Source of the DNA: Phycisphaerae bacterium
GTDB taxonomy: Bacteria; Planctomycetota; Phycisphaerae; UBA1845
Direction: 5' to 3'
DNA length: 64,000 nucleotides
Assembly (NCBI GenBank): GCA_013360585.1
Contig: JABWBH010000027.1
Location: 24,657 to 88,656, forward strand
Position 1 is the stretch's first letter. Every line of letters starts with the position of its first letter. This document shows, piece after piece, positions 2,357-64,000 of the stretch. The position numbers were made by a program, and so were the translations under genes. The notes under the pieces were generated by a model. That model was not told the DNA's origin, made no database searches, and saw only the letters and a program-made list of their open reading frames with translations.

Positions 2357-2840
2357 ACTTAATGATCATGCGGAGACCTCCCTGCGACAGGCCCCGCTTC
2401 GCCGGGGCGGCCGCCCCTCACCCGTCCCGGGAGAATCTTCCGAGAATCGTCTCCCCCGAGGGTCATCCGAGAGTCGTAGCCCCGGCAGGGGCGTCAGACA
2501 ACAGCCCAGCCCGCAAGGGCTGGGAAGGAAGCCGTCGCGGACAATCCGCAAGTCCCGGAGGGACGACAGAAGTTAAGCGAGGAAGGATCGCCGCCGATCC
2601 GCCGCCCCTCCTGGACCCAGGCGCACATCGCGTCCCAACGACAGAACATCCCGGATCCCGGGCACCGAAGTCCGATAGGGACTCAGCATCCCTCTATCAA
2701 CCGCGGGATACCGAACACCAGGCCGGAACGAGGGCGGACGCCCCCCGCTAACCCTGACGCAAATCTGGTGTCCTCTTTCCCGGAAGCCGCCGGGCGCGGT
2801 TTGAATTGAACGCCCGCACGGCCTTCAGAGGAGGTTTGTC

Positions 2841-13809: not shown

Positions 13810-13883
13810 TCCGCGCGGGAACTTCCGGCGGAACCCCGCGTCGAACATCGGGTGCGGATCCGCGCCAACGCTCGGGAGACGTT

Positions 13884-14693
13884 ATGATGGAAGCCCAGCC
13901 GGGGGGATCATGTCGTACGATGACGGCGGCGCTGGTCGTGGTGCCGCTGGGCGCGATGGCGCTGGCGGGGCTGGCGTTGTTTAAGACGGCGTCCTCGTCC
14001 GAGTTGAACTCGAGACTCGCAACGGTGGACGCGCAATTGTCGCGGCTGGAGAAGGAGCTGGACGAAGTCCGGCGCGAGAACCGCGAGCTTCGGCGCGATC
14101 TGGACGCCCTGCAACGCACCGCGCCGCCGGAGGCGCAGCCCGCCGCCGAACCGCCGTCGCCCGTCCCCTCTTCCGCGTCCGTCGAGAACCCGGTGGAGAA
14201 GCCGGTCGAGAAGCCGAAACCAACCCCGTCGACGTCGCCGCTGGGACCGCCCCGTCAGCCTCCCGGAGACGTGCTCCCGCCGCGCCGACCCGGTGACCCC
14301 GCGCCGACCCCGCCGCAAGCGCCACAACCGAAACCCGACAAACCGGACGCCCCGGTCACCGGCGCCACGGGAACGCTGACGTTCCGGATTGAGTCGCTGC
14401 GTTGGATGAACCCTACCCGCCGTGACAAGTCGGATTGCCTGCTGGTGCGGTGCGCGATCACGAACACGGGCGCCGACCCGGTGAAGGTTCCGATCCTGAC
14501 GTTGGAGGAGCTGCGCGACGACGGAAAGCATCAGTCGCACGTCCCGACGGAGCATTGCCCGACCGGAGAGTTCCCCCCCGGCGACGAGATCGGACCGAAA
14601 GAAACCGAGATGCGCTCGGCAGGGTTCTTCGTTCCGAAGGCGTCGCGCTACCGGTTCAGGCTCGGCGACGGCGCCATCGACATCAACCCGTGA
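13884..14693 (+). CDS. hypothetical membrane-anchored coiled-coil / Pro-rich protein
   Basis: An internal ATG of track ORF 13239..14693, downstream of the permease stop. One TM helix (ALVVVPLGAMALAGLALF), a coiled coil, a Pro-rich linker and a small C-terminal domain. Confidence 0.55.
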   Translation: MMEAQPGGSCRTMTAALVVVPLGAMALAGLALFKTASSSELNSRLATVDAQLSRLEKELDEVRRENRELRRDLDALQRTAPPEAQPAAEPPSPVPSSASVENPVEKPVEKPKPTPSTSPLGPPRQPPGDVLPPRRPGDPAPTPPQAPQPKPDKPDAPVTGATGTLTFRIESLRWMNPTRRDKSDCLLVRCAITNTGADPVKVPILTLEELRDDGKHQSHVPTEHCPTGEFPPGDEIGPKETEMRSAGFFVPKASRYRFRLGDGAIDINP

Positions 14694-14879
14694 GACGGGA
14701 ATCCGGCGCGGAGGCGCGGTTCTCGTTGCTTCTTGAATTTCCCGTCATCGTAAGTCGCAACCTCGACGCACAGGCGCTGAGCCGACAGGCCCTTGTTTCC
14801 CGCGCGGTGCGGACCGGAGGCTTGCGATCCACGACGATGCGGGCGGATCTGAAAACGCTTCCTGACGGGTGCGAAGCGA

Positions 14880-15836
14880 TCATTCCTCGAGCGTCCACGC
14901 CGGCAGCACGCCACCTTCCGGGTTGGACTCATCCGGAACGAAGACCTCCTCGAGCGGGATCGACTCTTCCCCGCCGTCAACGCCGCCTGATGCCGTCAGC
15001 GTTCCGGTGATGCTCGTCCAGGTGATCGTCGAACCGTCTTCAGACACAACGCCGGTCGCCGTTCCCGTATAACGAGCGTCGCTGATCACCAGCAGACCGC
15101 TGACGCTCATTTCGACGGAGACATCGAACGCCCACGTGACCGCGCCGTCTTCAAAAGCCACGTCGAACGCGGTCAACTCGACGATGATGCCGAGCGTCCC
15201 GGACAGACCGAGGTCGCCGCCCTCGAAGTCCGCGCGGACGAGCGTTTGTGCCGTCCCGAGGGTTGCCGTGTCCGCCGCCACCTCCGCTTCGATCAGGAAG
15301 CTCGTACCGCCGCCGTCTCCCGTGTCGCCGCCGTCACCGCCGTCTTCGCCGCCGCCGAAGTCACCGAGTCCGCCCAGCAGGTTCAGCAGTGCGACCAGCC
15401 CGTCCAGCTCGTACCGCGCCTGCTGAAACTCTCCGGCGCTGGTCATCTCATATGTCGCGGGCACCAGCGCCAGGAGCGGGCTGACAAAGGGGTCGGCCTC
15501 GCTGCGCCAGGCGAATACGCGCGTGCAGCCGTCCGCGTCCACCTCGAGACCGGCAGGCGTGTCGGTGCAGGCGTCCGCGGCGTTACTGACACCGTCCTGA
15601 TCCGAGTCGAGCTGCGAGGGGGCGCAGCCGTCGGCGTCCACCGTCTCGCCCGCCGGCGTCACGGGACAGAGATCCGCATCGTTGGCGACGCCGTCGCCGT
15701 CAATATCTCGCGCGGAGGTCGAGCCGGCACTGTCGTCCACGCCGCCGGTCGGAGCACATCCCTCCGAAGCGACGAGCCCGAGGAGCAACACCGCGACAAA
15801 GGTCCGCCCGACAGGATTAACATTCATAAGACGCAT
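14880..15836 (-). CDS. lipoprotein with thrombospondin type-3-like Ca-binding repeats
   Basis: Lipobox LVASEGC. Repeated DxDxDGxxDxxDxC motifs (DIDGDGVANDADLC, DSDQDGVSNAADAC). Confidence 0.65.
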   Translation of the reverse strand: MRLMNVNPVGRTFVAVLLLGLVASEGCAPTGGVDDSAGSTSARDIDGDGVANDADLCPVTPAGETVDADGCAPSQLDSDQDGVSNAADACTDTPAGLEVDADGCTRVFAWRSEADPFVSPLLALVPATYEMTSAGEFQQARYELDGLVALLNLLGGLGDFGGGEDGGDGGDTGDGGGTSFLIEAEVAADTATLGTAQTLVRADFEGGDLGLSGTLGIIVELTAFDVAFEDGAVTWAFDVSVEMSVSGLLVISDARYTGTATGVVSEDGSTITWTSITGTLTASGGVDGGEESIPLEEVFVPDESNPEGGVLPAWTLEE

Positions 15837-46956: not shown

Positions 46957-46998
46957 AGCCACCGGCGGGACTCGAACCCGCAACCTGCGGTTTACAAA
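46957..46998 (-). tRNA. 3' fragment of a tRNA-Thr(UGU)-like gene (anticodon loop to acceptor end); probable att-site remnant, not an intact tRNA
   Basis: The minus strand reads tttgtaa-accgc-aggtt-gcggg-ttcgagt-cccgc-cggtggc-t. That is an anticodon loop (UGU), a 3' anticodon stem, a variable loop, a perfect T arm and a 3' acceptor strand. The 35 nt upstream cannot form a D arm, a 5' anticodon stem or a 5' acceptor strand. Confidence 0.5.
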
Positions 46999-47222
46999 GC
47001 AGATGGTTCCTGCGCAAGTTCTTGTCATCGGCGAACTTATGTGCGTTTTCCCGAAGGAAAACAAAGTGCGGACTGTCTACCGAAGGGGAGCGGAGTCATT
47101 GCGGACTGGCTGACGGATGAAAAATGACGCCCAATTGACGCCAATTCGTCACCGTATCCCTTTCATGTGGCGGCTTCAAGAGGACAAAACGAGGGACGGG
47201 TTGTGCCTGCCAAGCCTCAGCG

Positions 47223-47846
47223 CTATTCCCCGTTCATTAGCCTCACCGGCAACTGGTTCACCAAATCCCGAAGATTCAGGCCGTGATACTTCACGAGTTT
47301 TTCCGCCCACGCGCCGTCCTCGGGCAACGGAAGCCCCTCGCGCGCGGCAATGCTTTCCAGGTGCGCCGCGATGTCCTTCGACCTCGGCTTACTCAAGTCG
47401 AAACGGACAAAACGCGACAGCAGCACGGGACTCGCCCAGTTTTCCTCCGTCGTGGTTCCGATGAATAAAACATGTTTCGGCAAAGACTCCAGTAGCGACA
47501 ACAAACGGTCGGACGCCCTGCCTGTCAATGTATGAATTTCGTCGAGCATGTACAGCTTTCTGCCCTTGCCGCCGACGCCGTAGTACGGCAGGTGCTCGTA
47601 GAGCTCTCGGAGACGCGACACGTCGCACTCGGCCGACTCAACCTTCACGATGTCGAAGTCGTCGATGCCCCAGTATTGACCGGCGCAGTACGCGAGCGTG
47701 GTCTTGCCGGAGCCCGACGGTCCCGTAAGGAGAAAGGCATGCCCGCTGGCATTGGGCTGGTCGAGATACCACTTCATCTGCGCCACGATGCGGTCCTGGC
47801 CGACGACCTCGTCGAACGTCGTCGGGCGGTACTTCTCAGCAAGCAC
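47223..47846 (-). CDS. minimal clamp-loader-like AAA+ ATPase (RFC small subunit / DnaX-like, no collar domain)
   Basis: AEKYRPTTFDEVVGQ, Walker A GPSGSGKTT, Walker B LYMLDEIH, sensor-1 FIGTTT, and SRF at the RFC SRC position. Only 207 aa. Confidence 0.7.
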   Translation of the reverse strand: MLAEKYRPTTFDEVVGQDRIVAQMKWYLDQPNASGHAFLLTGPSGSGKTTLAYCAGQYWGIDDFDIVKVESAECDVSRLRELYEHLPYYGVGGKGRKLYMLDEIHTLTGRASDRLLSLLESLPKHVLFIGTTTEENWASPVLLSRFVRFDLSKPRSKDIAAHLESIAAREGLPLPEDGAWAEKLVKYHGLNLRDLVNQLPVRLMNGE

Positions 47847-47900
47847 GTTCGGAACGTGGTTGGACGTTCGAGGGCACGCAAGCTCTTGATCGCGAGCGGG

Positions 47901-49853
47901 CTAAGCGTCCAGCCATGAGACCTCCTTCCAGTTTTTGGCCAGGATGACCCGAACGCGCGTTGGCATCAGGAGACCAGCGCGGGCGAGTTGCTTCTCGACC
48001 TTCGCAAAGGCGCGCTCGTCGGTCGCCACGACGAGGACTCGATGAAAACCCTCGCGTAGATTCAAGCTGACATTCTTGACCGCATTCGACGATCCGGTTT
48101 CCACCTCGATTCCGCAGCGTTTCCGACCGCTTTCCGCCAGCAGGTCGACGCTTCCGATACGGCGTGGCGCTTCAATTTTCACGGTGTAGCCTCTTTTTTC
48201 CAAGACTCGCCTGTAGAAGCATTTCCAGTATTCGTGAGGCAGGGACTCCCTCGTTGGGGTGTGCAGGCCGAGGAACTCGCGGGCTTTCGCCGACAGGCGC
48301 AAGACGACCTTGCGCGTCCGCTCGACCGGGACGACGGCCTCGTCGAGCCAGTTCTCGGCGACGAGCTTCTCCTTCACCGCGTGCCCGCGTCCGATGCTCA
48401 CCGACAGCCGCCTGTATCGCTCCTTGACGCCGTCGTCCTTGTGCGTCAACACGTCCTCCAGGAAATCCAGTTCGACCCTGTCCAACGGGTCATCATCAGC
48501 CTGAACCCGCTGAACGCCCCCAAAATCGCGGGATAGAAGCCGTAATGACCCTGAACCCGTCGTCATTGAGGCGAATCGTTGAAGATCGCTATCGCTCACC
48601 GCTCCTTTCTGGATGGGTACAAGAGGGAATCGCAGAAGGAAGGGCAGGCGCCATCGATCCTGGAGCTTGATGATGCCTTGGCCGACAGGCAGTAAGGTCA
48701 GATACCGTCTCTCGTTTTCGTCGAGCAAGCAGAGGCCGGCGGCGCGGTTGATGTCGCTCGGATCTTTCAAGTTGAGGCAGAAGGTCGTGAACGTGTTGCC
48801 CAGCGCGGCGCTGGATATCAGGTGCGGGTGCTGGTCGACGATGATGAAGGCGATGCCGAGTTCGCGGCATTGACGAAGGAGCATGTTCATCAGCGACTCC
48901 TTGGCGCGGTTTTCCTGTCGGTAAAGAACGTGGTGCGCTTCCTCGACCACGATGACGAGCGAAAGCTTCTCACGCGGCGACGATGCCAGCTTCACTTGGT
49001 AGAGCCAGTAGCAGAGCAGGGGCACGAGGAACTTGCGGCCGCCCTGCGAGAGGGCGTCGAGTTCGAGGATCGTCGTTCTTCCGAGGAGCTGCTGCGTGAA
49101 TCGTTGCTGCGGTTCGGAGGTTGACCCCGCTGCGCGAGGCAGGCTCTCCAGCGCCCGTATCGCCGAGGTCTTCCAGGCGCGGACGCGCTCCTTGTCCGGA
49201 ATCTGTTCCAGCTCGCGCGTCGCATCGTCAAGGGACGCTTGTCCCTGTCCCTTGGTGTAAGCGGCGTTGAACGTCTTGTGCAGGAGGCTCTTCGCGCCGT
49301 CGCCGAGCGTGAAGGAATCGGCGATGACGTCGACGAGGTGATTCACGTAGACGCTGGACTCGACGCCTGGTGGTACAAGAAGCGGATCGAACGCAAACGG
49401 AGCCAGCGGGCGCCCGGGCGTGAACACGCCCACGTCGCCTTTCAGCAGCGGAAGCAGATGGCGACCCGTGCGTTTCCAGTCGAGGAAGAGCACGGGAACG
49501 TGGCGGCCGTGAAGCTGTTGAAGCAGATGAAAGACCGCGTTCGTTTTGCCGGCGCCCGAGCGGCCGAACACGGCCAAGTTCTGCAGGAGCTCGCTTTCCG
49601 ATAGAGAAAACGACCACTTCTCTCGTTCGTAGAGCACCGTGCCCAGGCGCAGTGTTCCTCGTGATTTCGAGCGCGGCGGCAGGCTGAGCAGGATTCTACT
49701 CCGGAAGTCGCCGAACACCCTGTAGGCCATGGACGTAATCTGCTGCTCGACGAGTTCACGCATTCCGGCGTCGAGGTCGCGGGTTCGCATCCATTGCTTG
49801 ACTTCGTTGGGCATCAACGGCTGAAGCTTGCGGGCGAGGATTTCGACATTCAT
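47901..49853 (-). CDS. HerA/DUF87-type ATPase fused to a C-terminal wHTH plus PD-(D/E)xK-like nuclease-fold domain
   Basis: Walker A VFGRSGAGKTN, Walker B LVIVVEEAHH and IIVDQHP. The C-terminus has GYTVKIEAPRRIGSVDLLAESGRKRCGIEVETG. This resembles the D...E.E/K core of DUF4143/DUF234-type nuclease folds found behind ATPases. Confidence 0.7.
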   Translation of the reverse strand: MNVEILARKLQPLMPNEVKQWMRTRDLDAGMRELVEQQITSMAYRVFGDFRSRILLSLPPRSKSRGTLRLGTVLYEREKWSFSLSESELLQNLAVFGRSGAGKTNAVFHLLQQLHGRHVPVLFLDWKRTGRHLLPLLKGDVGVFTPGRPLAPFAFDPLLVPPGVESSVYVNHLVDVIADSFTLGDGAKSLLHKTFNAAYTKGQGQASLDDATRELEQIPDKERVRAWKTSAIRALESLPRAAGSTSEPQQRFTQQLLGRTTILELDALSQGGRKFLVPLLCYWLYQVKLASSPREKLSLVIVVEEAHHVLYRQENRAKESLMNMLLRQCRELGIAFIIVDQHPHLISSAALGNTFTTFCLNLKDPSDINRAAGLCLLDENERRYLTLLPVGQGIIKLQDRWRLPFLLRFPLVPIQKGAVSDSDLQRFASMTTGSGSLRLLSRDFGGVQRVQADDDPLDRVELDFLEDVLTHKDDGVKERYRRLSVSIGRGHAVKEKLVAENWLDEAVVPVERTRKVVLRLSAKAREFLGLHTPTRESLPHEYWKCFYRRVLEKRGYTVKIEAPRRIGSVDLLAESGRKRCGIEVETGSSNAVKNVSLNLREGFHRVLVVATDERAFAKVEKQLARAGLLMPTRVRVILAKNWKEVSWLDA

Positions 49854-49934: not shown

Positions 49935-50171
49935 GTGCTCCCTGCATGTCGCATGAATCGGGCAATCGTTGCGGCGTTATCACGTCGCATGAGAGCCATG
50001 CAAGCGAAAATGGCCACGAAGGAAGAGCTGGAAGCGCTCATCGACACCGTCGAGATTCTCAGCAATCCACAGACGATGGAGCAGAGTCGCGGGAGCAAGG
50101 AAGCCATCATGGCCGGCAGGATCAAGCAGGTTCATTCGGTGAAGGACTTGCTGGCCGAGCTTGACGCATGA
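49935..50171 (+). CDS. putative antitoxin (Phd/YefM-like C-terminal region)
   Basis: KEELEALIDTVEILSNPQTMEQSRGSKEAIMAGRIKQVHSVKDL resembles the toxin-binding C-terminal half of Phd/YefM antitoxins. 4-nt overlap with the toxin start. The N-terminal DNA-binding half is not recognisable, so the start is uncertain. Confidence 0.5.
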   Translation: MLPACRMNRAIVAALSRRMRAMQAKMATKEELEALIDTVEILSNPQTMEQSRGSKEAIMAGRIKQVHSVKDLLAELDA

Positions 50172-50520
50172 CGCCGTGGCGTATCCTGCGCACCGAACGA
50201 TTCTTAAAGGCGCTGCGCAAGCACCGGCACAACGGGGAGTTGCTCAAGGCGTTGGACAAGAAGGTCAAACGCCTTGAAGAAGATCCAAAGAGCGTCGGAG
50301 GCATGCGCTCGGGGGAGTGTCACGGAAGTCAATCCACGCGGCTCGTCAGCACATTCCGGCTCGTCTTCAGCGTTTACGCAAAGCCCCACAGGGTTTGCCT
50401 GGAAGCCTCGATCATCGCAAAGGCGTTTACGACAGAGCCGCGACGACTCCCGATGTGGACGGTCACGTCCCGCCCGCAGCCTTGAAGGACGTGTCGCCGC
50501 GCAGCAGCGCTCGACGATGA
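50168..50520 (+). pseudogene. RelE/ParE-family toxin gene with a frameshift near 50405-50410
   Basis: Frame 1 gives MTPWRILRTERFLKAL...FRLVFSVYAKPHRVCLEA. The conserved family C-terminus LDHRKGVYDR is read in the +1 frame (track ORF 50317..50520). The ...gaagcctcgatcatcgc... stretch looks one C short. Confidence 0.55.
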
Positions 50521-50924
50521 AGAAGTGTCAAGAGCTTGTCCTGGAGCGGACGCATGCTATCCTCGCGTTTCAAGGCGAGCTTACGGCGCTCGTCTTCGAT
50601 GTGGAGGAGGCGACGACGTAGCATCTGCCGGTCGTGCCAGTAGCGGTCGTAGTAGAACGGCGGTCGCGGCGAACTCTGAATGATCTCGGTGTCCACGTAG
50701 CACTCCAGCAGGAGAAGCCGACGATCAAGGCTGGCGTGGAGCTTTCGGATGCCGGTAAGCTGGTCGAGCGTGAGGGCGAGCTCGTTGTCCACAACACCGT
50801 CGAGCGTGCCCGCGGGCGCGTCCTTTGGGCGATCCGAGAGCATGGCCTTGGCTCGTTCCTCCAACTTTTCGCCGAAGGTCTTCCTCGGTTTCTGCTCGAT
50901 GACGACGATTCGCTTACGGTGCAT
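50463..50924 (-). CDS. hypothetical protein
   Basis: 153-aa ORF, charged and helical. No family recognised. Confidence 0.4.
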   Translation of the reverse strand: MHRKRIVVIEQKPRKTFGEKLEERAKAMLSDRPKDAPAGTLDGVVDNELALTLDQLTGIRKLHASLDRRLLLLECYVDTEIIQSSPRPPFYYDRYWHDRQMLRRRLLHIEDERRKLALKREDSMRPLQDKLLTLLHRRALLRGDTSFKAAGGT

Positions 50925-53056: not shown

Positions 53057-53665
53057 TCAGCGAGATTCTCGTATGCTACACGCGTACCCTGCGTGGAGCA
53101 TTAACTCTCGGATCGTCTGGCGCGCGCTTGCAACGCAATAGCTTGGATACCTCTCTCCGGGCTCCTGAACAGGCTCAACCAATCCAACCTTTCGCAGCCA
53201 GCGCATGACGTCTCTTGCGTTGTTCCCTGACATCCGCAGCGTCGGATCGAGCGCCCGGGCGCGTCGCTTGGCGGCGGCGGGCTGCATCGGATAAGCTAAC
53301 GCCTTTATGATCGCCGAGCGGTGCCGGTGACAGACCTGCCCGTACAAGTCCCAATCCACGTCGGGAACGAACGGCGCGGGCACCTCTTTTTCTTGATCGC
53401 GAAAGTATCGTCGCCGGCATACCAACCCGAGGCGACTGAGCCAGTAGACGCGATTGCGCTGGGCGGCGTCGTTCAAGCAGGTCGCCAGCTTTTTCAACGT
53501 GAACTCCCAGAAGACGTAGGAGCACGCGTCGAGAGACAGCCCGGTTCGCTTCGACATCTGATTCGCCGTTAACGGCTGCGAAAAGTTCAAGAGAACAAGT
53601 TTCCGCCTCGGACTCTTCAGGATCCAGGGATAGACTTTGGAGAGATTCATGGCGCGAGGAGGCAT
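53057..53665 (-). CDS. putative winged-helix DNA-binding protein
   Basis: 202 aa. Two wHTH-like segments (LLNFSQPLTANQMSKRTGLSLDACSYVFWEF...; ...NNARDVMRWLRKVGLVEPV). Confidence 0.45.
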   Translation of the reverse strand: MPPRAMNLSKVYPWILKSPRRKLVLLNFSQPLTANQMSKRTGLSLDACSYVFWEFTLKKLATCLNDAAQRNRVYWLSRLGLVCRRRYFRDQEKEVPAPFVPDVDWDLYGQVCHRHRSAIIKALAYPMQPAAAKRRARALDPTLRMSGNNARDVMRWLRKVGLVEPVQEPGERYPSYCVASARQTIRELMLHAGYACSIRESR

Positions 53666-54855: not shown

Positions 54856-55098
54856 ATGACTTATCACCAAGAGGAAGACGAGGACGACGAGGAATCACAG
54901 AAGCGCAGCGCTGAGCGGTGCGCACGATGCCGCCGTTCGATTGAGCCGGGCGCGGACGTGATCGGCTTGCAGGACGGCGTTTTAGGACCGCGAGGGTTCA
55001 TTCCCCTCGAAGAGCACCGTTTTTTCTGCAACGAAGACTGCCTGCGGGCTGACTTTGACCACGGCGACGTGGAGAAGCTGCCGCGGCGGATCCCTTGA
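54856..55098 (+). CDS. small acidic protein with a Cys4 zinc-ribbon-like motif
   Basis: 80 aa with CARCRRS...FFCNEDC. SD gaggagg upstream. The stop overlaps the methyltransferase start. Confidence 0.45.
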   Translation: MTYHQEEDEDDEESQKRSAERCARCRRSIEPGADVIGLQDGVLGPRGFIPLEEHRFFCNEDCLRADFDHGDVEKLPRRIP

Positions 55099-56537
55099 CC
55101 GCCCAGGAAGACTCCGGCTCCGGCGCCAGCGAGGTGCCGGGGTTGGACAGCATCGAGTGTCGTGACGCGCTGTCAGGGCTTCGTGCCCTGCCGGAGGCGT
55201 GCGTGGACTGCGTTCTCACCTCGCCGCCGTATTGGAGCATGCGCGATTATCATCTGGACCCTGTCATCTGGCCGGACGGCAAGGTCAACGTTCTGGGTTT
55301 GGAGGATTCGCCCGAGGACTACGTCGAGCACCTGTGCAGCGTTCTCGATGAAATCTCCCGTGTCCTGAAACCCACCGGCACGGTGTGGATCAACCTCGGA
55401 GACACCTATGCCGGAAGCTGGGGCAATTACGCGCCCCGCAGGCCCAAAGACCAGCCGTTTGCCGAGACGCCGTCGCACTGGCCGCGGAAAGGCCTGATTC
55501 CGCCGTCGGTGCGTCCACCGGCGTCCAAACCGCAACGAGTTCCTGATAAATCCCTGTGCCTGATCCCCATGCGCTTCGCCCTGGCGATGCTGGAACGCGG
55601 CTGGATTCTGCGCAACGACCTCTGCTGGCACAAGCCGAATCACATGCCGGCCAGCGTTAAAGACCGGTTCACCCCCTCCTGGGAGCATCTGTTCCTGTTC
55701 GTCAAAAGCCCAAGGTACTATTTCGACCTGGACGCGGTCAGGCAGCCGCACAAGTGTCTGGCGGAAGTGGCCGGACGTTGGAAAGACAAGATCACGCCGC
55801 GCGTCAATTATCATCCCAAGGGCGTGCGACGTCCGCCGCATCCCGGCGAACCCGGCTCCATGCACCCTCGTGGCAAGAACCCTGGCGATTTCTGGGAGAT
55901 TCCCGCGGAGACCCGCACGCTCGGCGCGATTCTCGGCGTGCGCGGCGCGGTCAAGGTGCCCGGGGGCAGCGGCTGGACCGGCCATGCAGAAGGCGGCGAG
56001 GCCCGGATTCTGCACGAGCAGGATCCGCGCTGGCTCTCTCCCTTGGGGAAGAACCCCGGAGATTGCTGGAGCATCTGCACGACGCCCTCTTCGCTGGGGC
56101 ATTTTGCTGTCTACCCCGAAGCGCTTTGTGAGCGGCCGATCAAGGCCGGATGTCCGGCACAGGTGTGCCTCAAGTGCGGCATGCCCTGGCTGATTCGCAG
56201 CCGGGGGGGCGGTTCGGCCTTCAACATCCGTGTCCGCGACGTCAAGACCGGGAAGCTGAAAGCTCCTGACCGGCGAGCCTCGGCGCAAGAGGTCGCCGCA
56301 TATGATGAGCGCGCCTACCGCCTTGAAGCCAAGGAAACACGAGTGCTCGGTTGTTCGTGCAACGCCGGCTTCGGCGCAGGTATCGTGTTGGATCCGTTCA
56401 TCGGTTCAGGCACGACCGCGGTGGTGGCCTTGCGTTTGGGCCGGCACTTCATCGGCTTCGAGGCCAATCCCGATTACGTGCAGATGGCCCGTCAGCGGCT
56501 GGCGAAGGCCGCAGCGCGTGAGGGCGGTGCGACGTGA
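55095..56537 (+). CDS. DNA methyltransferase, N4/N6 (beta class), SPPY motif (likely N4-cytosine type)
   Basis: VDCVLTSPPYW (motif IV) near the N-terminus and LDPFIGSGTTAVVA (motif I) near the C-terminus, with a large insertion between them. TTG start in the track; the start is uncertain. Confidence 0.8.
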   Translation: MTAQEDSGSGASEVPGLDSIECRDALSGLRALPEACVDCVLTSPPYWSMRDYHLDPVIWPDGKVNVLGLEDSPEDYVEHLCSVLDEISRVLKPTGTVWINLGDTYAGSWGNYAPRRPKDQPFAETPSHWPRKGLIPPSVRPPASKPQRVPDKSLCLIPMRFALAMLERGWILRNDLCWHKPNHMPASVKDRFTPSWEHLFLFVKSPRYYFDLDAVRQPHKCLAEVAGRWKDKITPRVNYHPKGVRRPPHPGEPGSMHPRGKNPGDFWEIPAETRTLGAILGVRGAVKVPGGSGWTGHAEGGEARILHEQDPRWLSPLGKNPGDCWSICTTPSSLGHFAVYPEALCERPIKAGCPAQVCLKCGMPWLIRSRGGGSAFNIRVRDVKTGKLKAPDRRASAQEVAAYDERAYRLEAKETRVLGCSCNAGFGAGIVLDPFIGSGTTAVVALRLGRHFIGFEANPDYVQMARQRLAKAAAREGGAT

Positions 56538-57928
56538 AGCCGTGTTTTGACCGCGACGGCCTGCAGTTGTTCCGCGGCGACTGTCTCGAGCTCATGCAGG
56601 AAATGCCCGCGGACAGCGTGGACACGATCATCACCGACCCGCCCTACGGTCTGGGCTTCATGGGCAAAGCCTGGGACACGATTGCCGACCGCAGGTTTGC
56701 GATGCCGGGTCTGGAGCGCAAAAAACCCTGGCCGCGGCTGGCCACAAGGGACGTTCGAAAGCGGTTGGCGGAAAGCAGTCTTCAGGAGTTTCATCGGCGA
56801 TGGAGTCAGGCCGCGCTGCGGGTGGCCAAGCCGGGCGCCTTGCTGCTGGCATTCGGCAGCACGCGGACCTTTCATCGCCTGGCGTGTGGTCTGGAAGACG
56901 CCGGCTGGCAGATTCGAGATTGCTTCATGTGGCTCTACGGCTGCGGGTTCCCCAAGTCGCTCAACATCGGCAAGGCGATGAGCAAGGCGAAGGAGGGAGA
57001 GTCGAAATCGTGGGCAGGCTGGGGCACGGGCCTCAAGCCCGCGTGGGAGCCGATCATCCTGGCGATGAAGCCGCTGGAGGGCACGTTCGCCGAGAACGCG
57101 GCAAGGCACGGTCTCTCCGGTTTGAACATCGACGCGGCGAGGATTCAAGGCGCGCCGGGCGAAGGCTGCTGGGGCTCCAGCAACGCGACCTGTCCGCAAG
57201 GCTCGACGTTCAATGGTTCCCCGAAGGCCGCAGAATACCGCAGCGAACGGCACGCCCGAGGGCGCTGGCCGGCCAATCTGCTCTTCACGCATCATCTGGA
57301 TTGTCAGTATCTCGGCGTCGCTCGAATGAAGGGCAGCGCCTCCTCAAAAGCGTTTCACAAGGCATACCCTGGAAAGTCCGTGACGCGGTTCCTGCGCGGC
57401 GATTCGCATCCCGGGAATCAGCACGCCGACCGCGACGGGCTGGAAACCCTCGAATCCTGGGATTGTCATCCCGAGTGTCCCGTGCGGATGCTCGACGAGC
57501 GAAGCGGGATGCGAAAGAGCGGCAGCCGCCTCACGGGCAACGAGCCCTCGCTCCCCGCGAAGCACGTCTACGGCGCCATGAAGCATCCCCGCAAGTGGGA
57601 GCCGTATCTGGACCGAGGCGGCGCGTCGCGCTTCTTCTACTGCTCGAAAGCCCCCCGAGCAGAACGCAACCTCGGCCTTTCAGGCGAAGACAATGATCAC
57701 CCGACCGTCAAGCCGCTGGGGCTGATGGAGTATCTCTGCCGGCTCACGGCCACGCCGTCAGGCGGGTTGATCCTCGATCCGTTCGCGGGCACCGGGACGA
57801 CTCTGCTCGCGGCAAGGAACGTCGGCCGACCTTGCGTGGGTATCGAGATTGAGGCGCAGTACGTCGAGATCGCCAAGAAGCGGCTCGAAGTGGTTGAACG
57901 TCCTGCGCTGAGTTCGTCCGCCGCTTGA
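56534..57928 (+). CDS. DNA methyltransferase, N4/N6 (beta class), DPPY motif (likely N6-adenine type)
   Basis: VDTIITDPPYG and LDPFAGTGTTLLAA. 4-nt overlap with the preceding methyltransferase. Confidence 0.8.
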   Translation: MKPCFDRDGLQLFRGDCLELMQEMPADSVDTIITDPPYGLGFMGKAWDTIADRRFAMPGLERKKPWPRLATRDVRKRLAESSLQEFHRRWSQAALRVAKPGALLLAFGSTRTFHRLACGLEDAGWQIRDCFMWLYGCGFPKSLNIGKAMSKAKEGESKSWAGWGTGLKPAWEPIILAMKPLEGTFAENAARHGLSGLNIDAARIQGAPGEGCWGSSNATCPQGSTFNGSPKAAEYRSERHARGRWPANLLFTHHLDCQYLGVARMKGSASSKAFHKAYPGKSVTRFLRGDSHPGNQHADRDGLETLESWDCHPECPVRMLDERSGMRKSGSRLTGNEPSLPAKHVYGAMKHPRKWEPYLDRGGASRFFYCSKAPRAERNLGLSGEDNDHPTVKPLGLMEYLCRLTATPSGGLILDPFAGTGTTLLAARNVGRPCVGIEIEAQYVEIAKKRLEVVERPALSSSAA

Positions 57929-58900: not shown

Positions 58901-59317
58901 ATGGATATAAACTTTTCGCAGCGGAAGGACACAGCGACACCTCAGGCGAACGTTTATGAGGCCGCTTGGCGTTCCGCGGGCATGTGGAATGAGCCCTCGG
59001 AACTGGAGCTTCGGGCGCTGCCGGCAATCGGCACGAACGAGGAAGTCGACTGGAAAGAGGTGCTTATCAGGATGCACTTCTTTATCGGCGGCTGTGATTG
59101 GTACGTCGCCGAGTACTCGCCCGCGGACAGGATCTTCTACGGCTACGCGATTCTCAGCAACGACCTGGACAATGCCGAGTGGGGCTACATGAGCCTCGAC
59201 GAAATGCGAGAAATTCACGTCCGAGGGTTTGAGATCGACCGCGACTTGCATTGGGAGGAGCGGAAGGCATCGGAGATTGAGAAGATTGCGGCCGCGTATC
59301 GGACACATGGCAGATAG
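58901..59317 (+). CDS. DUF2958 family protein (plasmid/ICE-associated)
   Basis: RMHFFIGGCDWYVAEYSPADRIFYGYAIL...EWGYMSLDEMREI...FEIDRDLHWE fits my recollection of the DUF2958 signature (FF.....W.W...E.D.....FG......ELGY.SL.EL...ERD). Confidence 0.65.
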   Translation: MDINFSQRKDTATPQANVYEAAWRSAGMWNEPSELELRALPAIGTNEEVDWKEVLIRMHFFIGGCDWYVAEYSPADRIFYGYAILSNDLDNAEWGYMSLDEMREIHVRGFEIDRDLHWEERKASEIEKIAAAYRTHGR

Positions 59318-59328
59318 CACGACTGTCG

Positions 59329-60105
59329 TCACTCAATACAACTTCTTACGTGCCGGGCAAGAACCTCCGCAAGTCTGGCGACATCGCGCGGAGTCAGGAC
59401 AATGATCTCATGCAAGACGAATGGCGCCAGTGCCTTCGGATTCAGAACCCATACTTCAATACCCCGAGGCTGCTTTTCGACGAACCATCCTGGGTAGAGG
59501 ACAACAGGACGCAACGGGACTCTCCTTTCCAAGATATTCGCCAACAAGTCACATATGAATGCCGCCGCTGCCCGCGCCTGGACTACTGGATCCCTATCAG
59601 GCCGAAGCCCGTTGACCAAGACACGCTCGCCGTCGTACTTGACGACCGGGCTCCCTTGCGCAAGTTTGCTCACTGCCTTGGTCTCAATGACGAATAAGCC
59701 CGCCGGTCCAATGAGCACATGGTCCACATTGAAGCCCTTGCCCGGGACATCGTGGAAGACCTCGTAGCCGAAGGCTCTCATTCGCTCCAGCGTCTGCCCG
59801 ACGCTTTGCTCGCCTTCCATGCCGAGGCGAAGTCGCTTGGTCTCCTTCAGGCCGCGATAGACCTGAATCACGGCCAGGACAACGATCGGAATCGCGATCG
59901 CCGTCGCGTATCCGGGGGCCGGAGTCGTCGGTACGAGAAAGTGCCACCACGACGTTAACATCGCGACAAGCAAGAGTGCCGCCACAAGCGCCCACATCAT
60001 GCATTTTGTTACGAGAACTTCGTAAACATCATGGAGCAGCGTTTCGCCTGCTTGCGGTAGGGGCGGGTCTTTCAACGGCGATCGTCGGGCGGAAGGTTTT
60101 CTCAT
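59329..60105 (-). CDS. NERD (nuclease-related) domain protein with two N-terminal TM helices
   Basis: GMEGEQSVGQTLERMRAFGYEVFHDVPGKGFNVDHVLIGPAGLFVIETK is the NERD core. It is preceded by the hydrophobic segments MMWALVAALLLVAML and AIAIPIVVLAVI. Confidence 0.75.
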   Translation of the reverse strand: MRKPSARRSPLKDPPLPQAGETLLHDVYEVLVTKCMMWALVAALLLVAMLTSWWHFLVPTTPAPGYATAIAIPIVVLAVIQVYRGLKETKRLRLGMEGEQSVGQTLERMRAFGYEVFHDVPGKGFNVDHVLIGPAGLFVIETKAVSKLAQGSPVVKYDGERVLVNGLRPDRDPVVQARAAAAFICDLLANILERRVPLRPVVLYPGWFVEKQPRGIEVWVLNPKALAPFVLHEIIVLTPRDVARLAEVLARHVRSCIE

Positions 60106-60727: not shown

Positions 60728-61945
60728 ATGACATGGAGGACGCGATACGAAAATGGAAAGGATGAACTGCTCGTAGACAACGCTATCTGCAAGGCCAATC
60801 GTAAAGTCTTCGCTGAGCTGTTCGAGTTCGAGGAATACAAGCTCAAGCGCAGAAACCAACTACCGAACCTCGATGACGCTTGCTATAAAACTCTCTACGG
60901 ATACATCCATAAACTCCGTAATGCAAACACGTGGTTTGAGAACAAGCCTTGGATAGCAATAACGAAGGACGACATCAAGAGAGTCTACGACGCTTTGGAA
61001 GACGGAAAGATCAAGAATGCCCGAGGGCAGCCGATTGCCGACCGGGCAAGCTATTACAACAAGATATTCAAAAGCAAGCCATTCCGAATCGTCCGCAAAG
61101 ATGTTCTGGCCAAAGAGGTGATCGAGTTCTACACCCGACGTAAAGAGGAAGTACGATTTGTCACCGAAGACACCTTCCGGAAAATGGTTTCGGTGCTGTC
61201 GAAACCGCAGCATCTCCTGCTGTTCTGGCTCGCGTGGGATCTCGGCGAGAACGTCGATGCTCTGCTCAAATTGACGAAGCGGGATTTCACGCGGCAGAAG
61301 AATCCGCACACGCACGAACCGGAGTATCTCGTCAATCTCCAAAAGGCCAAGCTGAAGCGCAGCCGGCAGGCGCGCACCGAGCCCACGCTGTACGCCGAAA
61401 CCGTGCGATACGCGGACATCGTTCTTGAACGTCTGAAAGCGGACGAGCCGCTGTTCACCTTTGGCTATCGCCAAGCCTTGAAGCTCATGCACTCCGCCGT
61501 CGAGAAAACAGGGGCCACGTGCCTCCCGTCAAACGGGCCCGTGCGCTGGAAAGACCTACGGTCGGGCATGGCCTGTCACCTCCTCAAGAACGGCTGGACA
61601 CGCGAGGAAGTGGACGCCCGCCTCGGACACACGCCGAACTCCTCGGCGTTGAACGCGTATCTCAACTACCTGGCGATTGACCGGCAGAAGCCGAAGAAGC
61701 GGCTGTTCGACTCTTCTCTTGAACACGTGCAAAGCGAGCTGGAAGAAGCAAGGCGGCGGGAGAAGCTTCACGGCGAGCGCCTCGAACGCCAGGCCGAAGA
61801 GAACCGCGAGCTGCGGGATGAACTGAAGGAGACCCAGACGACCGTCCGCGACATGAAAAAACTCATCGAGATCGCGATGCGGAAGCTGGATGCGCCGGGG
61901 GACGGGAGGCCGGTGACACGAGCGAAAGGAACGGCGCGCTCCTGA
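60728..61945 (+). CDS. tyrosine recombinase / phage-type integrase (divergent) with C-terminal coiled-coil tail
   Basis: WKDLRSGMACHLLKNGWTREEVDARLGHTPNSSALNAYLNY matches the R...LGH...Y end of the integrase catalytic domain. The first catalytic Arg region (LAWDLGENVDALLKL) is atypical. Confidence 0.6.
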   Translation: MTWRTRYENGKDELLVDNAICKANRKVFAELFEFEEYKLKRRNQLPNLDDACYKTLYGYIHKLRNANTWFENKPWIAITKDDIKRVYDALEDGKIKNARGQPIADRASYYNKIFKSKPFRIVRKDVLAKEVIEFYTRRKEEVRFVTEDTFRKMVSVLSKPQHLLLFWLAWDLGENVDALLKLTKRDFTRQKNPHTHEPEYLVNLQKAKLKRSRQARTEPTLYAETVRYADIVLERLKADEPLFTFGYRQALKLMHSAVEKTGATCLPSNGPVRWKDLRSGMACHLLKNGWTREEVDARLGHTPNSSALNAYLNYLAIDRQKPKKRLFDSSLEHVQSELEEARRREKLHGERLERQAEENRELRDELKETQTTVRDMKKLIEIAMRKLDAPGDGRPVTRAKGTARS

Positions 61946-62306
61946 AAACGGCCCAGCGGGACAGGCCAAGGCTCAAATAGGGCGGAAGCATGACGCGCCG
62001 CATGACCAGCAAAGCCAACCCCGAAGACGCAAGGCGCCAACCACGCAACTCCCAGAAACGCCGAAACGAAGCGGTTCGCCGGCTGCTCCTGGCGGCGCTC
62101 TCGCTGTCCAGAAGTCGTAAACATGAAACGACCGTGCAACGTTGAGACGCCCGACCCGTTGAGCAGCCTCCAGAAAAACCGCCCCCACCGGCGCCCCCTA
62201 AAGCCGAGCCCGATACCAGTGGTCGGGATCCAGAAAAGCACAAGCGACAGACCCATCATTGTATCATTGTGGACGTCTGCTTCAGCAAAAATGGCGATTC
62301 TCCGAT

Positions 62307-62828
62307 TCATCGGTGTCGCCCTCTTATTCCTATGTAGACAGCGATGCTCCCATTATCGGAATCACAGATTGCGATATCTAGTGGGTACGGACGCTCCGGT
62401 GGGCAAGCATCCAGTTGTGCGTACGACTTCGGCCTGACCCTCAGGCCGGCGAGGCTTTCAGAAAACGCAGATTGACGCGGCTCCCACTCATTCAGTTGGT
62501 TCTTAATACTAGGGTTTGCGTTCAAGAACGTTGTTAGCTCAGCCTGTCCGGGTAGATAGAAGTCCCATACCAAACCCAAGCGGTACTTAGGCATCCGTTG
62601 ACACACTATATGAGTCTGCTGCGGCGGCACAATCCCATCTTTGGCCATCATTATTTGATGGCGTGAGAGATCATGGTATAGAGGGCGGTTGTCAATAATA
62701 AGAAACCCCATGAAAACGGCGAGAGCCATTACAGAAGCAGCGAGGAGGCTCTTGATGGACTTACGGATCAGTGTTGCCGATGTCATTAGAGCCTTCCTCG
62801 CAGTCAGTATTACCGCTGTCATTATCAT
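62307..62828 (-). CDS. putative immunity protein for the upstream RHS toxin (membrane-anchored)
   Basis: It lies immediately downstream of the RHS C-terminal domain in the same orientation and is AT-rich. TM helix ALAVFMGFLII. The real start may be an internal Met (62786 or 62729), because 62828 overlaps the RHS stop by 68 nt. Confidence 0.45.
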   Translation of the reverse strand: MIMTAVILTARKALMTSATLIRKSIKSLLAASVMALAVFMGFLIIDNRPLYHDLSRHQIMMAKDGIVPPQQTHIVCQRMPKYRLGLVWDFYLPGQAELTTFLNANPSIKNQLNEWEPRQSAFSESLAGLRVRPKSYAQLDACPPERPYPLDIAICDSDNGSIAVYIGIRGRHR

Positions 62829-64000
62829 TAACCATATCGTTTTCGTTCGGTTGCTCGGCAGGTGTGGGTTTTGGGACGCGCGTCACGAGCCAGCGGAAGA
62901 ACGGCCAAGTCTTGCCTGGGGAAGCGGTGACTTCTATATTCAAATCCCACAAGGCCCATATCCACGCGGCCAGGAGATTAAGATCGCCTTGATTGCACGC
63001 GTAAATGTAGAAGCTGAAGAGCCTCCGGCCAGGTCTGAGTCTCCTCAACCTATCAGGTGTGAGAACTTCTGGTCGGCCGTCCTTCGTTCCGATGCGAATC
63101 TGAGCAGCATCAGAGTAGCCGTGACCAATAAATATGATTTTGTCCAGCGTATTATCTCTCCATACCGCCTGGAAAGCGCGCACTCTACCAATTTCCACAA
63201 TATCAACGTGATCTCCGAAGTAACGATGGATTTTGGCCAGTTGTTCAGCCAGTAGCCGCGATCCCCATGGCGCATCGTTGGCTATAACGATCATAATCTT
63301 GTCAAGACCCAATGGGTCTACCCAAGCCGCCGGATTACCGTCGCAATAGGCGTATAATGACGGCCCCGACGCGCCATACCCCAGCGGGTCGCGTTGGAGG
63401 AACGTCTTCAGCGTCGGGTGATACGTGCGGAAGCGGTAGAAGTAGAGGCCGGTTTCGGCGTCGAGGCGTCTGCCGGTGAAGAGGAACGGGTTGCCGTTGG
63501 GTGAGAAGCTGCGGTTCGCCACGACCATCGTCGTCGAGGCGGCCGGGTCGTTGTAACTGGCGTCCCAGGCTTCTTGGTCCGCGTCGCCGCTGGTGTTGCT
63601 CACGTCGCCGTCGAAGTCCGCGTCGAACGTGCGGTTGTACGTCGAGAGCGCGGCGGTGCGGGCGGTGTTGTCGGCGCTGTCCACGTCGCCGTCCGCGTCG
63701 CTGTCTCCGAAGGCCAGATGCCGCCGGATCTGCGGCGAGCCATACGGCTGATACTGCACCTCCTCCGCCACGTCGCCGTTGGGCGTGGTCAGCGCGATGA
63801 CGTTCCAGTTCGCGTCCTGATGCACGAACCATGTCCCGCCCGCCCCGCGGATCATCAGCAACTGGTCGATATACTCGTGGCCCCAGACGTACTGCTGGGT
63901 CACGGCCTCGGCGCCGTTGCGCTCCTCGATCTCGCGCAGGCCGTCGTAGAAGAAGTACGTGGTGCCGTCGAGGTCGCCGCGATTGCTGACGACCTTGCTC
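62761..64000 (-). CDS. RHS-repeat protein, C-terminal part with a variable toxin domain (gene continues beyond the right window edge)
   Basis: The frame stays open upstream of the track start to the window end (..YFFYDGLREIEERNG..). RHS core end FTGRRLDAETGLYFYRFRTYHPTLKTFLQRDPLGY...NPAAWVDPLGL is followed by an AT-richer ~195-aa C-terminal domain. Confidence 0.8.
   Translation of the reverse strand, partial: SKVVSNRGDLDGTTYFFYDGLREIEERNGAEAVTQQYVWGHEYIDQLLMIRGAGGTWFVHQDANWNVIALTTPNGDVAEEVQYQPYGSPQIRRHLAFGDSDADGDVDSADNTARTAALSTYNRTFDADFDGDVSNTSGDADQEAWDASYNDPAASTTMVVANRSFSPNGNPFLFTGRRLDAETGLYFYRFRTYHPTLKTFLQRDPLGYGASGPSLYAYCDGNPAAWVDPLGLDKIMIVIANDAPWGSRLLAEQLAKIHRYFGDHVDIVEIGRVRAFQAVWRDNTLDKIIFIGHGYSDAAQIRIGTKDGRPEVLTPDRLRRLRPGRRLFSFYIYACNQGDLNLLAAWIWALWDLNIEVTASPGKTWPFFRWLVTRVPKPTPAEQPNENDMVNDNDSGNTDCEEGSNDIGNTDP

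Follow-up and report, generated by a model that had tools for sequence, protein, structure and literature searches.

A 64,000-nucleotide stretch of contig JABWBH010000027.1 from a Phycisphaerae bacterium (positions 24,657 to 88,656; hereafter the window, whose own numbering is used throughout) contains two neighboring genes that had been predicted to form an undescribed two-gene system. The larger encodes a 650-amino-acid (aa) ATPase with a C-terminal winged helix-turn-helix (wHTH) and a nuclease-like domain, the smaller a 207-aa AAA+ protein resembling replication factor C (RFC). We find that the 650-aa gene characterizes a family of integrative islands that target tRNA genes and are widespread, chiefly among Planctomycetota, and that the RFC-like gene is a phage-type passenger in the variable cargo slot of the island, located next to the ATPase gene in this lineage only. 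As originally described, the two open reading frames (ORFs) are co-oriented: the 650-aa ORF ('c0') spans 47901-49853 and the 207-aa ORF 47223-47846, both on the minus strand and separated by a gap of 54 nucleotides (nt; 47847-47900).

Every motif quoted in the original prediction is found in the two proteins. The 650-aa protein carries FGRSGAGKTN (Walker A, residues 96-105), VVEEAHH (Walker B, 302-308), GSVDLLAE (567-574) and GIEVETG (581-587), and the 207-aa protein carries EKYRPTTFDEVVGQ (4-17), GPSGSGKT (42-49), DEIH (102-105) and SRF (144-146). These residues are invariant or nearly so among 40 homologs of the larger and 33 homologs of the smaller protein; the 40-sequence alignment has a mean column identity of 59%. 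The P-loop ATPase core of the larger protein (approximately residues 66-420; 48594-49658, minus strand) matches DUF87 (PF01935, HerA-central) with an E-value of 2.4e-7 and 31.5 bits, above the gathering score of 23.2 bits. Its top NCBIfam match is the VirD4-like CedD with 54 bits against a cutoff of 600. HerA equivalog models reached 29 bits (NF040937, cutoff 800) and 25 bits (NF040819, cutoff 970), anti-phage HerA models 27 bits (NF042943, cutoff 800) and 13.7 bits (NF042944, cutoff 850), and the type IV secretion system (T4SS) ATPases TraC, VirB4 and TraD 27.7, 23.5 and 11.5 bits against cutoffs of 567, 643 and 521.

In an AlphaFold model built with 40 homologs (mean pLDDT 87), a helical N-terminal part leads into the ATPase core; a disordered linker (431-455) then connects this core to a winged helix (459-520), behind which lies an alpha-beta-beta-beta-alpha-beta-alpha-beta module (538-638). 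Ahead of the P-loop the model has three helices (3-47) and one beta-hairpin (68-84); a HAS-barrel is not obvious there by eye, no dedicated domain comparison having been made, and the N-terminal 94 residues gave no meaningful Pfam match. The protein is predicted to be soluble, with no transmembrane segment and a maximum 19-residue Kyte-Doolittle mean of 1.26. Using Foldseek against the PDB, Sulfolobus HerA (4d2i) was the top match of the ATPase core by E-value (9e-15). By TM-score the ranking is led by the DndH C-domain (0.71, root mean square deviation (rmsd) 4.4 Å) and VirB4 (0.69), then TrwB, TdpA, SIR2-HerA and DUF4297-HerA, with VirB4 and TrwB spanning TM-scores of 0.58-0.69. Judged by its modeled fold, the core belongs to the FtsK-HerA superfamily, of which the Foldseek comparison does not single out one branch. 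The predicted label 'HerA-type' is acceptable as shorthand for such an ATPase but over-specific, as the core is about as near to VirD4/CedD, VirB4 and the DndH C-domain as to HerA in both sequence and fold.

Modeled alone, the C-terminal 195 residues reached a pLDDT of 93.6 and a pTM of 0.85. The first half of this model is a wHTH (approximately residues 459-520; 48294-48479, minus strand) whose fold matches MarR, ScpB and MukE. The second half (approximately residues 538-638; 47940-48242, minus strand) is a PD-(D/E)xK-like alpha-beta-beta-beta-alpha-beta module, composed in the isolated model of a helix (83-98), strands at 102-108, 113-120 and 123-130, a second helix (136-146) and a further strand (150-155). 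Foldseek aligned it with OkrAI (probability 0.99, rmsd 5.3 Å over 110 columns), the R2 restriction-like endonuclease, Bax1 and SfsA. When the PDB was searched with a profile made from this region, solely PD-(D/E)xK proteins came up, namely Hjc (E 0.04), Cas4 (0.12), AF1548 (0.41) and YraN (0.73), all of which align with it on the VDxxA and xIExE motifs. Residues H540, W543, E561, D570, E583, E585, T586 and S589 are invariant in the 40 homologs, with D570 and E583 aligning with positions of Hjc and Cas4. The predicted fusion of an ATPase to a wHTH and a nuclease-like domain thus holds: the AlphaFold models are confident, and the nuclease matches, weak but consistent and of modest significance, point to a PD-(D/E)xK-type core. 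Pfam gave no meaningful match on the isolated C-terminal half, and a search for other architectures of the wHTH-nuclease module returned solely fragments of the same family. One 3.8-Mb contig of a metagenome-assembled genome (P0339, Planctomycetia bacterium) encodes a 197-aa protein that is 99% identical to part of the C-terminal half; the ATPase gene of this very close relative seems to be split or frameshifted in the assembly.

Relatives of the 650-aa protein are numerous. An exhaustive profile search yielded 753 clusters at 50% identity (E <= 1e-30), and because nearly all of them are full length (640-700 aa, matching the whole profile), the fusion of motor and nuclease-like domain is the ancestral, stable form. 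Several genomes contain 2-4 copies with 43-90% mutual identity, and one complete chromosome holds two copies 420 kb apart. No relatives were found among 2.9 M IMG/VR viral contigs, and the plasmid collection contained just distant DUF87 proteins of actinobacterial and Bacillus plasmids, with 22-27% identity over the ATPase core only. In all libraries searched, annotation of the family does not go beyond 'DUF87' or 'hypothetical'. Copies with approximately 50% identity also occur in bins labeled Nanoarchaeia, Woesearchaeota, Babeliaceae, Chlamydiae, Gemmatimonadota and Actinomycetes (e.g. L053, L054, L061, L088, L038 and L015); these represent either mis-binned mobile-element contigs or real cross-phylum transfer.

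Of the 389 loci with a relative of the 650-aa protein that a scan of one genome per species detected, we retrieved the best 80 together with flanks of up to 10 kb. We clustered all ORFs of these 80 loci and of the window, re-scored the clusters with hidden Markov models and counted only loci with enough flanking sequence. The conserved neighbors of the ATPase gene lie upstream on the same strand. The most constant partner is c2 (~143 aa, no family match), which 45 of 61 loci (74%) encode no more than 3 kb upstream. The median gap between the c2 stop and the ATPase start is 2 nt, and the two genes are normally translationally coupled. The gene c1 (~190 aa) is present in 38 of 61 loci (62%); its N-terminus shows weak wHTH, MarR and Replic_Relax matches, and its consensus reads like a second wHTH behind the first. 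Neither c1 nor c2 has a family-level match in Pfam or any match in PHROGs, NCBIfam or PADLOC. One or two copies of an N6/N4 methylase are found in 23 of 61 loci (38%) and a tyrosine recombinase within 6 kb in 19 of 51. Occasional neighbors are ArdC (1e-38), DUF2958-like and RadC/JAB-like genes, the last so labeled from a motif reading rather than a search.

These genes follow a usual order of recombinase, (c9), c1, [methylases or ArdC], c2 and ATPase. The complete genome CP050848 (L063) encodes c1, one or two methyltransferases, c2 and the ATPase in a tight operon with overlapping stops and starts. In another locus (L032) an intact tRNA-Val abuts the recombinase, which is followed by c1, c2 and the ATPase gene. 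The accessory inserts between c1 and c2, i.e. ArdC or methylases without a recognized cognate nuclease, are establishment or anti-restriction genes. Variable genes, often defense cargo, follow the ATPase gene. The relative with 77% identity (L001) carries a cassette (13042-15831) resembling a cyclic oligonucleotide-based anti-phage signaling system (CBASS), with a patatin effector, a DncV-like cyclase and a 182-aa ORF. L003 carries a type I restriction-modification (RM) system and an abortive infection (Abi) gene, and L032 a T7-endo-I-like ORF, an SbcCD-like pair and a genuine SIR2-HerA, the latter a separate system 6 kb away.

The window holds the same backbone of recombinase, c9, c1, c2 and ATPase gene, together with methylase, NERD and DUF2958-like ORFs. 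The prediction had placed the two genes at the left end of an island, which agrees with the drop in G+C content from ~0.65-0.68 to 0.55-0.62 that begins at ~46 kb and with a partial tRNA (46957-47003, minus strand) 220 bp beyond the 207-aa gene. This fragment consists of the T-arm (GCGGG-TTCGAGT-CCCGC) and the 3' acceptor strand and is probably an attachment (att) remnant at the left boundary of the island. In L001 (position 16016) and in the 99% identical locus L012 (position 6462) the island ends with the same tRNA fragment. No complete tRNA was found anywhere within the 64-kb window. Within the window no right end of the island was detected; the low G+C content persists to the window end.

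The RFC-like gene, by contrast with these upstream partners, is not a conserved neighbor of the ATPase gene, a finding that the original prediction had named beforehand as grounds for its rejection. Searching the 207-aa protein against the best 80 of 389 loci with tblastn detected an RFC-like gene within 10 kb in only two. One of them, L012, is the same element (99% identity); in the other, L084, the RFC-like gene is 37% identical and lies 3.7 kb upstream on the opposite strand. Because at least 1 kb of sequence is available downstream of the ATPase gene in 68 of the 80 loci, missing sequence cannot explain this absence. The pair is kept in the closest relatives (L001, 77%; L012, 99%) but not in relatives with 50-55% identity. 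In the reverse direction, none of five independent RFC-like contexts carries a HerA-like ATPase; their surroundings of small ORFs, integrases and serine recombinases resemble those of temperate phages. Since the CBASS-like cassette of L001 lies between the RFC-like gene and the tRNA fragment, the RFC-like gene sits in the variable end zone, and the cassette shows the island end to be a cargo hotspot. In the window the two genes may be co-transcribed: there is no terminator-like site between them and one after the 207-aa gene, in a scan that performed no better than shuffled controls (1 promoter-like site vs a mean of 0.8; 3 terminator-like sites vs 5.2). The proposed two-gene system is thus not borne out. 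In keeping with the prediction, neither protein corresponds to a named system among the PADLOC, Pfam and NCBIfam models.

Taken on its own, the 207-aa protein is the collar-less clamp-loader-type AAA+ protein that had been predicted. The Pfam families AAA, DNA_pol3_delta2 and RuvB_N match it, as does dnaX_nterm with 5.6e-31 and 108 bits (cutoff 250 bits), the profile being covered to ~197 of 355. The RFC small subunit 2chg aligns with 6.9e-17 until ~205 of RFC-S, and phrog_5846 ('clamp loader') with 4.9e-41. G42, P43, G47, K48, T49, D102, E103, T131-133, S144 and R145 are invariant in the 33 homologs. The AAA+ module is therefore complete, comprising Walker A and B, sensor 1, the SRC-type arginine (S144, R145) and the lid domain. 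The protein has domains I and II only and ends at residue 207, where the collar (domain III) would start. Because ~65 clusters (205-220 aa, 55-67% identity) all share the short form, it is a member of a genuine short family and not a truncation.

Homologs of the 207-aa protein annotated as clamp loaders are found in 551 GenBank phage records. A 49,446-bp contig with an RFC-like gene (L097, L098 and L099), whose other genes include a terminase large subunit, an integrase and numerous small ORFs, was recovered from three samples with equal length and different start points; this points to a circular phage-like genome. The terminase-bearing contig and the phage records together show that the RFC-like family is essentially phage-borne. 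No polymerase, clamp or helicase gene lies beside the 207-aa gene, and the window and the five homolog contexts show integrase, resolvase and small ORFs, but neither a polymerase nor a clamp gene. Searching IMG/VR with a single sequence of the family, a query that reaches close relatives only, returned nothing. A metagenome scan with the RFC-like alignment produced 5 weak loci dominated by generic GPSGSGKTT P-loop patterns, which were not used.

Between the ATPase gene and the recombinase, the window deviates from the usual layout in some respects. The c2 gene (153 aa; 50463-50924, minus strand) is separated from the ATPase gene by 609 nt instead of the family median of 2 nt. Inserted there are two small overlapping ORFs of 78 and 105 aa (49935-50171 and 50168-50485, plus strand), which break the coupling and occur at this position in this lineage only, including L001. 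They read like a Phd/RelE-type toxin-antitoxin (TA) pair and have zero Pfam or NCBIfam matches. The c1 gene, the conserved first gene of the module, encodes a 202-aa predicted tandem-wHTH DNA-binding protein (53057-53665, minus strand), from which the recurrent 80-aa cysteine-containing c9 (54856-55098, plus strand) diverges. Two N6/N4 DNA methyltransferases of 480 and 464 aa (55095-57928, plus strand), accessory to the module, are inverted here relative to the usual order and lie 5 kb from the ATPase gene. They are followed by a DUF2958-like ORF (c13; 58901-59317, plus strand), a recurrent island accessory, by a NERD-domain protein (59329-60105, minus strand) and by the tyrosine recombinase (60728-61945, plus strand). 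The latter belongs to the same family (c8) as the recombinases flanking the module elsewhere, with 47-66% identity to those of other loci. The mobile neighborhood described in the prediction (methylases, NERD protein, TA-like pair) is therefore as stated.

Adjoining the recombinase, a 380-aa ORF (62761-63903, minus strand) contains an Rhs-associated core domain (TIGR03696, 3e-20) and represents an Rhs toxin tip, the two small ORFs after it (62307-62828 and 61768-62310, minus strand) being candidate immunity genes; this Rhs-core tip sits at the window end. The sole Rfam family in the window is an Acido-Lenti-1 small RNA at 2478-2524 (minus strand; 42.4 bits, gathering score 37).

Other HerA-family genes were observed near some of the islands. 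In eight loci (L017, L025, L030, L041, L042, L056, L058 and L082) a shorter paralog of ~560 aa is encoded 7-10 kb downstream of the main copy. Where flanks allow, a Cys-rich ~143-aa ORF lies ahead of it, and in four paralog loci the next gene encodes a ~155-aa protein that combines an N-terminal hydrophobic helix with the same IEIETS nuclease-like motif. The ~560-aa and ~155-aa proteins are a split version of the fused architecture and show that the nuclease-like module can be encoded separately. ORFs labeled by motif, without a search, as ThiF/E1-like, JAB-like, ubiquitin-like and Cys-rich occur in L015, L030, L040 and L056 (c28/c29/c47/c48). In L054, L063, L075, L079 and L080 (c40-c44) such ORFs accompany another HerA-like ATPase of ~720-750 aa with a C-terminal wHTH; the c40-c44 clusters may thus encode a conjugation system of the ubiquitin-like kind together with a HerA-type ATPase to which it is linked.

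What might the 650-aa protein do in these islands? We tentatively favor a role in the life cycle of the element itself: the ATPase would be the backbone motor-nuclease of tRNA-targeting islands and, partnered by c2 and c1, process the island's own DNA, with the RFC-like gene as cargo. The soluble ATPase would form a hexameric ring that translocates double-stranded DNA (dsDNA) by ATP hydrolysis, as is reportedly the case for the FtsK-HerA superfamily described by Iyer and colleagues in 2004, and by analogy with HerA-nuclease complexes (PMC11291478). A flexible linker would tether to this motor the winged helix for DNA recognition and the PD-(D/E)xK-like domain for DNA cutting. Acting with its upstream partners c2 and c1, beside the tyrosine recombinase of the island, it may after excision recognize a site on the island DNA, cut or nick it and pump it. 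It could thereby stand in for a coupling protein plus relaxase, or for a terminase. We favor this role because the minimal core contains no other large enzyme besides the recombinase, because the position of the ATPase gene is fixed across deep divergence and because establishment and anti-restriction genes lie in the same operon.

Several observations weigh against such a role. Coupling proteins and FtsK/TraB are membrane-anchored and the 650-aa protein is not. The structural matches with the lowest E-values are HerA proteins, several of them from anti-phage systems, which fits a function in defense equally well. The matches of the nuclease-like domain are modest (Foldseek E 1e-3 to 1e-2; profile E 0.04-0.7), and although its PD-(D/E)xK-like fold is well supported, catalysis is putative because the canonical lysine of the (D/E)xK motif is replaced by the invariant glutamate E585. 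K544 on the first helix of the module, conserved in at least 90% of homologs, could substitute for the missing lysine. Among loci whose flanks are long enough, a quarter to a third lack c2, and likewise c1. No att repeats were detected within +-10 kb of tRNA-Val in L032 or tRNA-Asn in L050, and no relaxase, T4SS, replication or capsid genes were recognized in the islands, where many neighbors lack any family. In its broadest form, the suggestion that the c1-c2-ATPase trio is either the DNA-processing engine of an unrecognized class of integrative islands or a new single-chain motor-nuclease immune effector is possible, though rather doubtful.

Similarly possible but doubtful is that c2 and the ATPase constitute a self-contained defense or competitor-exclusion module, in which the ring would load on foreign DNA, at ends or where it is unprotected, and the fused nuclease would degrade it. 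The lowest Foldseek E-values, which include SIR2-HerA, DUF4297-HerA and TdpA besides the DndH C-domain, agree with this, as do the weak PADLOC matches to HerA models (E 1e-10 to 1e-2 over partial stretches of the P-loop core) and to mad8. DUF4297-HerA is a proven ATPase-nuclease defense complex (PMC11291478), the islands bear other defense systems, and the nuclease-like domain has invariant acidic residues. The paralogous arrangement, with this domain as a separate gene after a shorter HerA-like gene, likewise resembles two-gene systems. However, even at sequence divergence above 50% the ATPase gene keeps its place beside the recombinase, c1 and c2, as a backbone gene would and shuffled cargo would not. 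The scores against defense HerA models lie far under family level (HerA_antiphage 27 bits vs 800; best PADLOC E 1e-10), c1 and c2 lack PADLOC matches, and several diverged copies of the ATPase coexist in one genome.

Restriction based on methylation, with the N6/N4 methylases marking self and the ATPase-nuclease restricting unmethylated DNA as in the methylation-associated defense system (MADS), type I/III RM or Dnd, is unlikely. One or two methylases do share the tight operon in ~38% of loci, as in L063, and mad8 and the DndH C-domain are the top matches by PADLOC and by TM-score, respectively. This explanation is weakened because ~62% of loci contain no methylase within 3 kb and yet keep the ATPase motifs intact. 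In addition, the anti-restriction gene ArdC can occupy the methylase slot, no further mad gene was found, and the methylases of the window are inverted and distant. The top PADLOC match to mad8 (E 1.4e-11) covers the P-loop region only, and none of ten neighboring ORFs matched a mad gene, the methylases being MTase_II; membership in MADS was rejected.

We consider it very improbable that the ATPase is a genome-packaging enzyme of a virus or satellite. A motor, a nuclease and site recognition are what a terminase needs, and phrog_2666 ('terminase large subunit') matches the protein with 2.4e-11, but this match spans just ~85 residues of the P-loop core including the Walker B region, no relative exists among the IMG/VR contigs and no capsid, portal or tail gene was recognized in the islands. 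That the fusion and the RFC-like AAA+ protein act jointly in sensing and degrading DNA, as first proposed, is hardly credible: co-orientation, close spacing, the uninformative terminator pattern and retention in the two closest relatives speak for it, but the adjacency is limited to one element lineage, the 207-aa family is phage-borne and its slot holds CBASS, RM or SIR2-HerA elsewhere.

Setting the HerA-RFC 'system' aside as a false lead leaves a large protein family with a conserved architecture that marks islands, and the 650-aa gene is of interest mainly as a marker of this uncharted island family of Planctomycetota. To our knowledge, the mobile elements and gene-transfer routes of this phylum are almost uncharted. 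The islands ferry defense systems (CBASS, RM, SIR2-HerA) and anti-restriction genes among Planctomycetota. If the ATPase drives island transfer or replication, it offers a way to study how genes move horizontally in a phylum for which genetic tools are few. One soluble polypeptide would then join site recognition by a wHTH, cutting by an ExE variant of PD-(D/E)xK and an FtsK-HerA motor, replacing the relaxase plus coupling protein, or the small plus large terminase, of other systems. If it is instead an immune effector, it would be a compact, fused form of ATPase-nuclease defense complexes that are under structural study. The collar-less clamp-loader-like family is a separate puzzle, being phage-borne with an intact arginine finger and no known route to a pentamer.

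A comparison with named systems places both proteins near, but outside, characterized families. The 207-aa protein shares with the clamp loaders (DnaX gamma/tau, RFC-S and those of phages) a complete AAA+ module, the SRC-type arginine and the lid, but lacks their collar and forms its own family of ~210 aa. In phage R5C the 306-aa clamp-loader gene adjoins a DNA polymerase gene, which is not the case for the 207-aa gene.

For the ATPase, the type IV coupling proteins and VirB4-type ATPases (TrwB/VirD4/CedD, TraC) belong to the same superfamily; CedD, a VirD4-like DNA-translocating ATPase (PMC11823120), is the top NCBIfam match, and the 650-aa gene likewise resides on a mobile element with ArdC-type genes. 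Unlike them, the 650-aa protein has no N-terminal transmembrane segment, and its C-terminal wHTH and nuclease-like domain are foreign to them. Membership in CedD/VirD4 was rejected on the bit score and the missing transmembrane segment. DndFGH and TdpAB are similar in fold (DndH C-domain, TdpA) and in that DNA-modification genes often lie beside the module; the PADLOC matches to DndH are marginal, however (E 0.01), no dnd, ssp or tdp modification genes were found, and methylases accompany only a minority of loci. MANTIS/Gao_RL, which uses the AAA+ protein MtsA and a PLD-SF2 effector, is unrelated.

HerA-NurA resembles the 650-aa protein as a soluble FtsK-HerA motor coupled to a nuclease, and its Sulfolobus HerA is the top PDB match. 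The scores of 25-29 bits against HerA equivalog cutoffs of 800-970 set the two apart, as does the lack of a Mre11/Rad50 operon: neither NurA nor Mre11/Rad50 had a Pfam or NCBIfam match among the window neighbors or the conserved neighbor clusters. DUF4297-HerA and SIR2-HerA also combine a HerA-type ATPase with a DNA nuclease, and their ATPase fold was matched with Foldseek E-values of 1e-10 to 1e-13. DUF4297-HerA cleaves dsDNA and hydrolyzes ATP cooperatively, with a separate effector in a complex of ~1 MDa (PMC11291478). In the 650-aa protein the nuclease-like domain and the wHTH are fused to the ATPase; it scores far under the cutoffs of these systems, has c2 and c1 as partners and keeps a fixed position in the island backbone. 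No SIR2 or DUF4297 effector gene was found among the neighbors of the window ATPase gene. A full-text literature search, from whose scope subscription literature was excluded, returned no published description of such a fusion or of such islands. Overall, ATPase-nuclease machines of the FtsK-HerA superfamily are well known; the fused 650-aa family and the islands that it marks are an undescribed addition to them.

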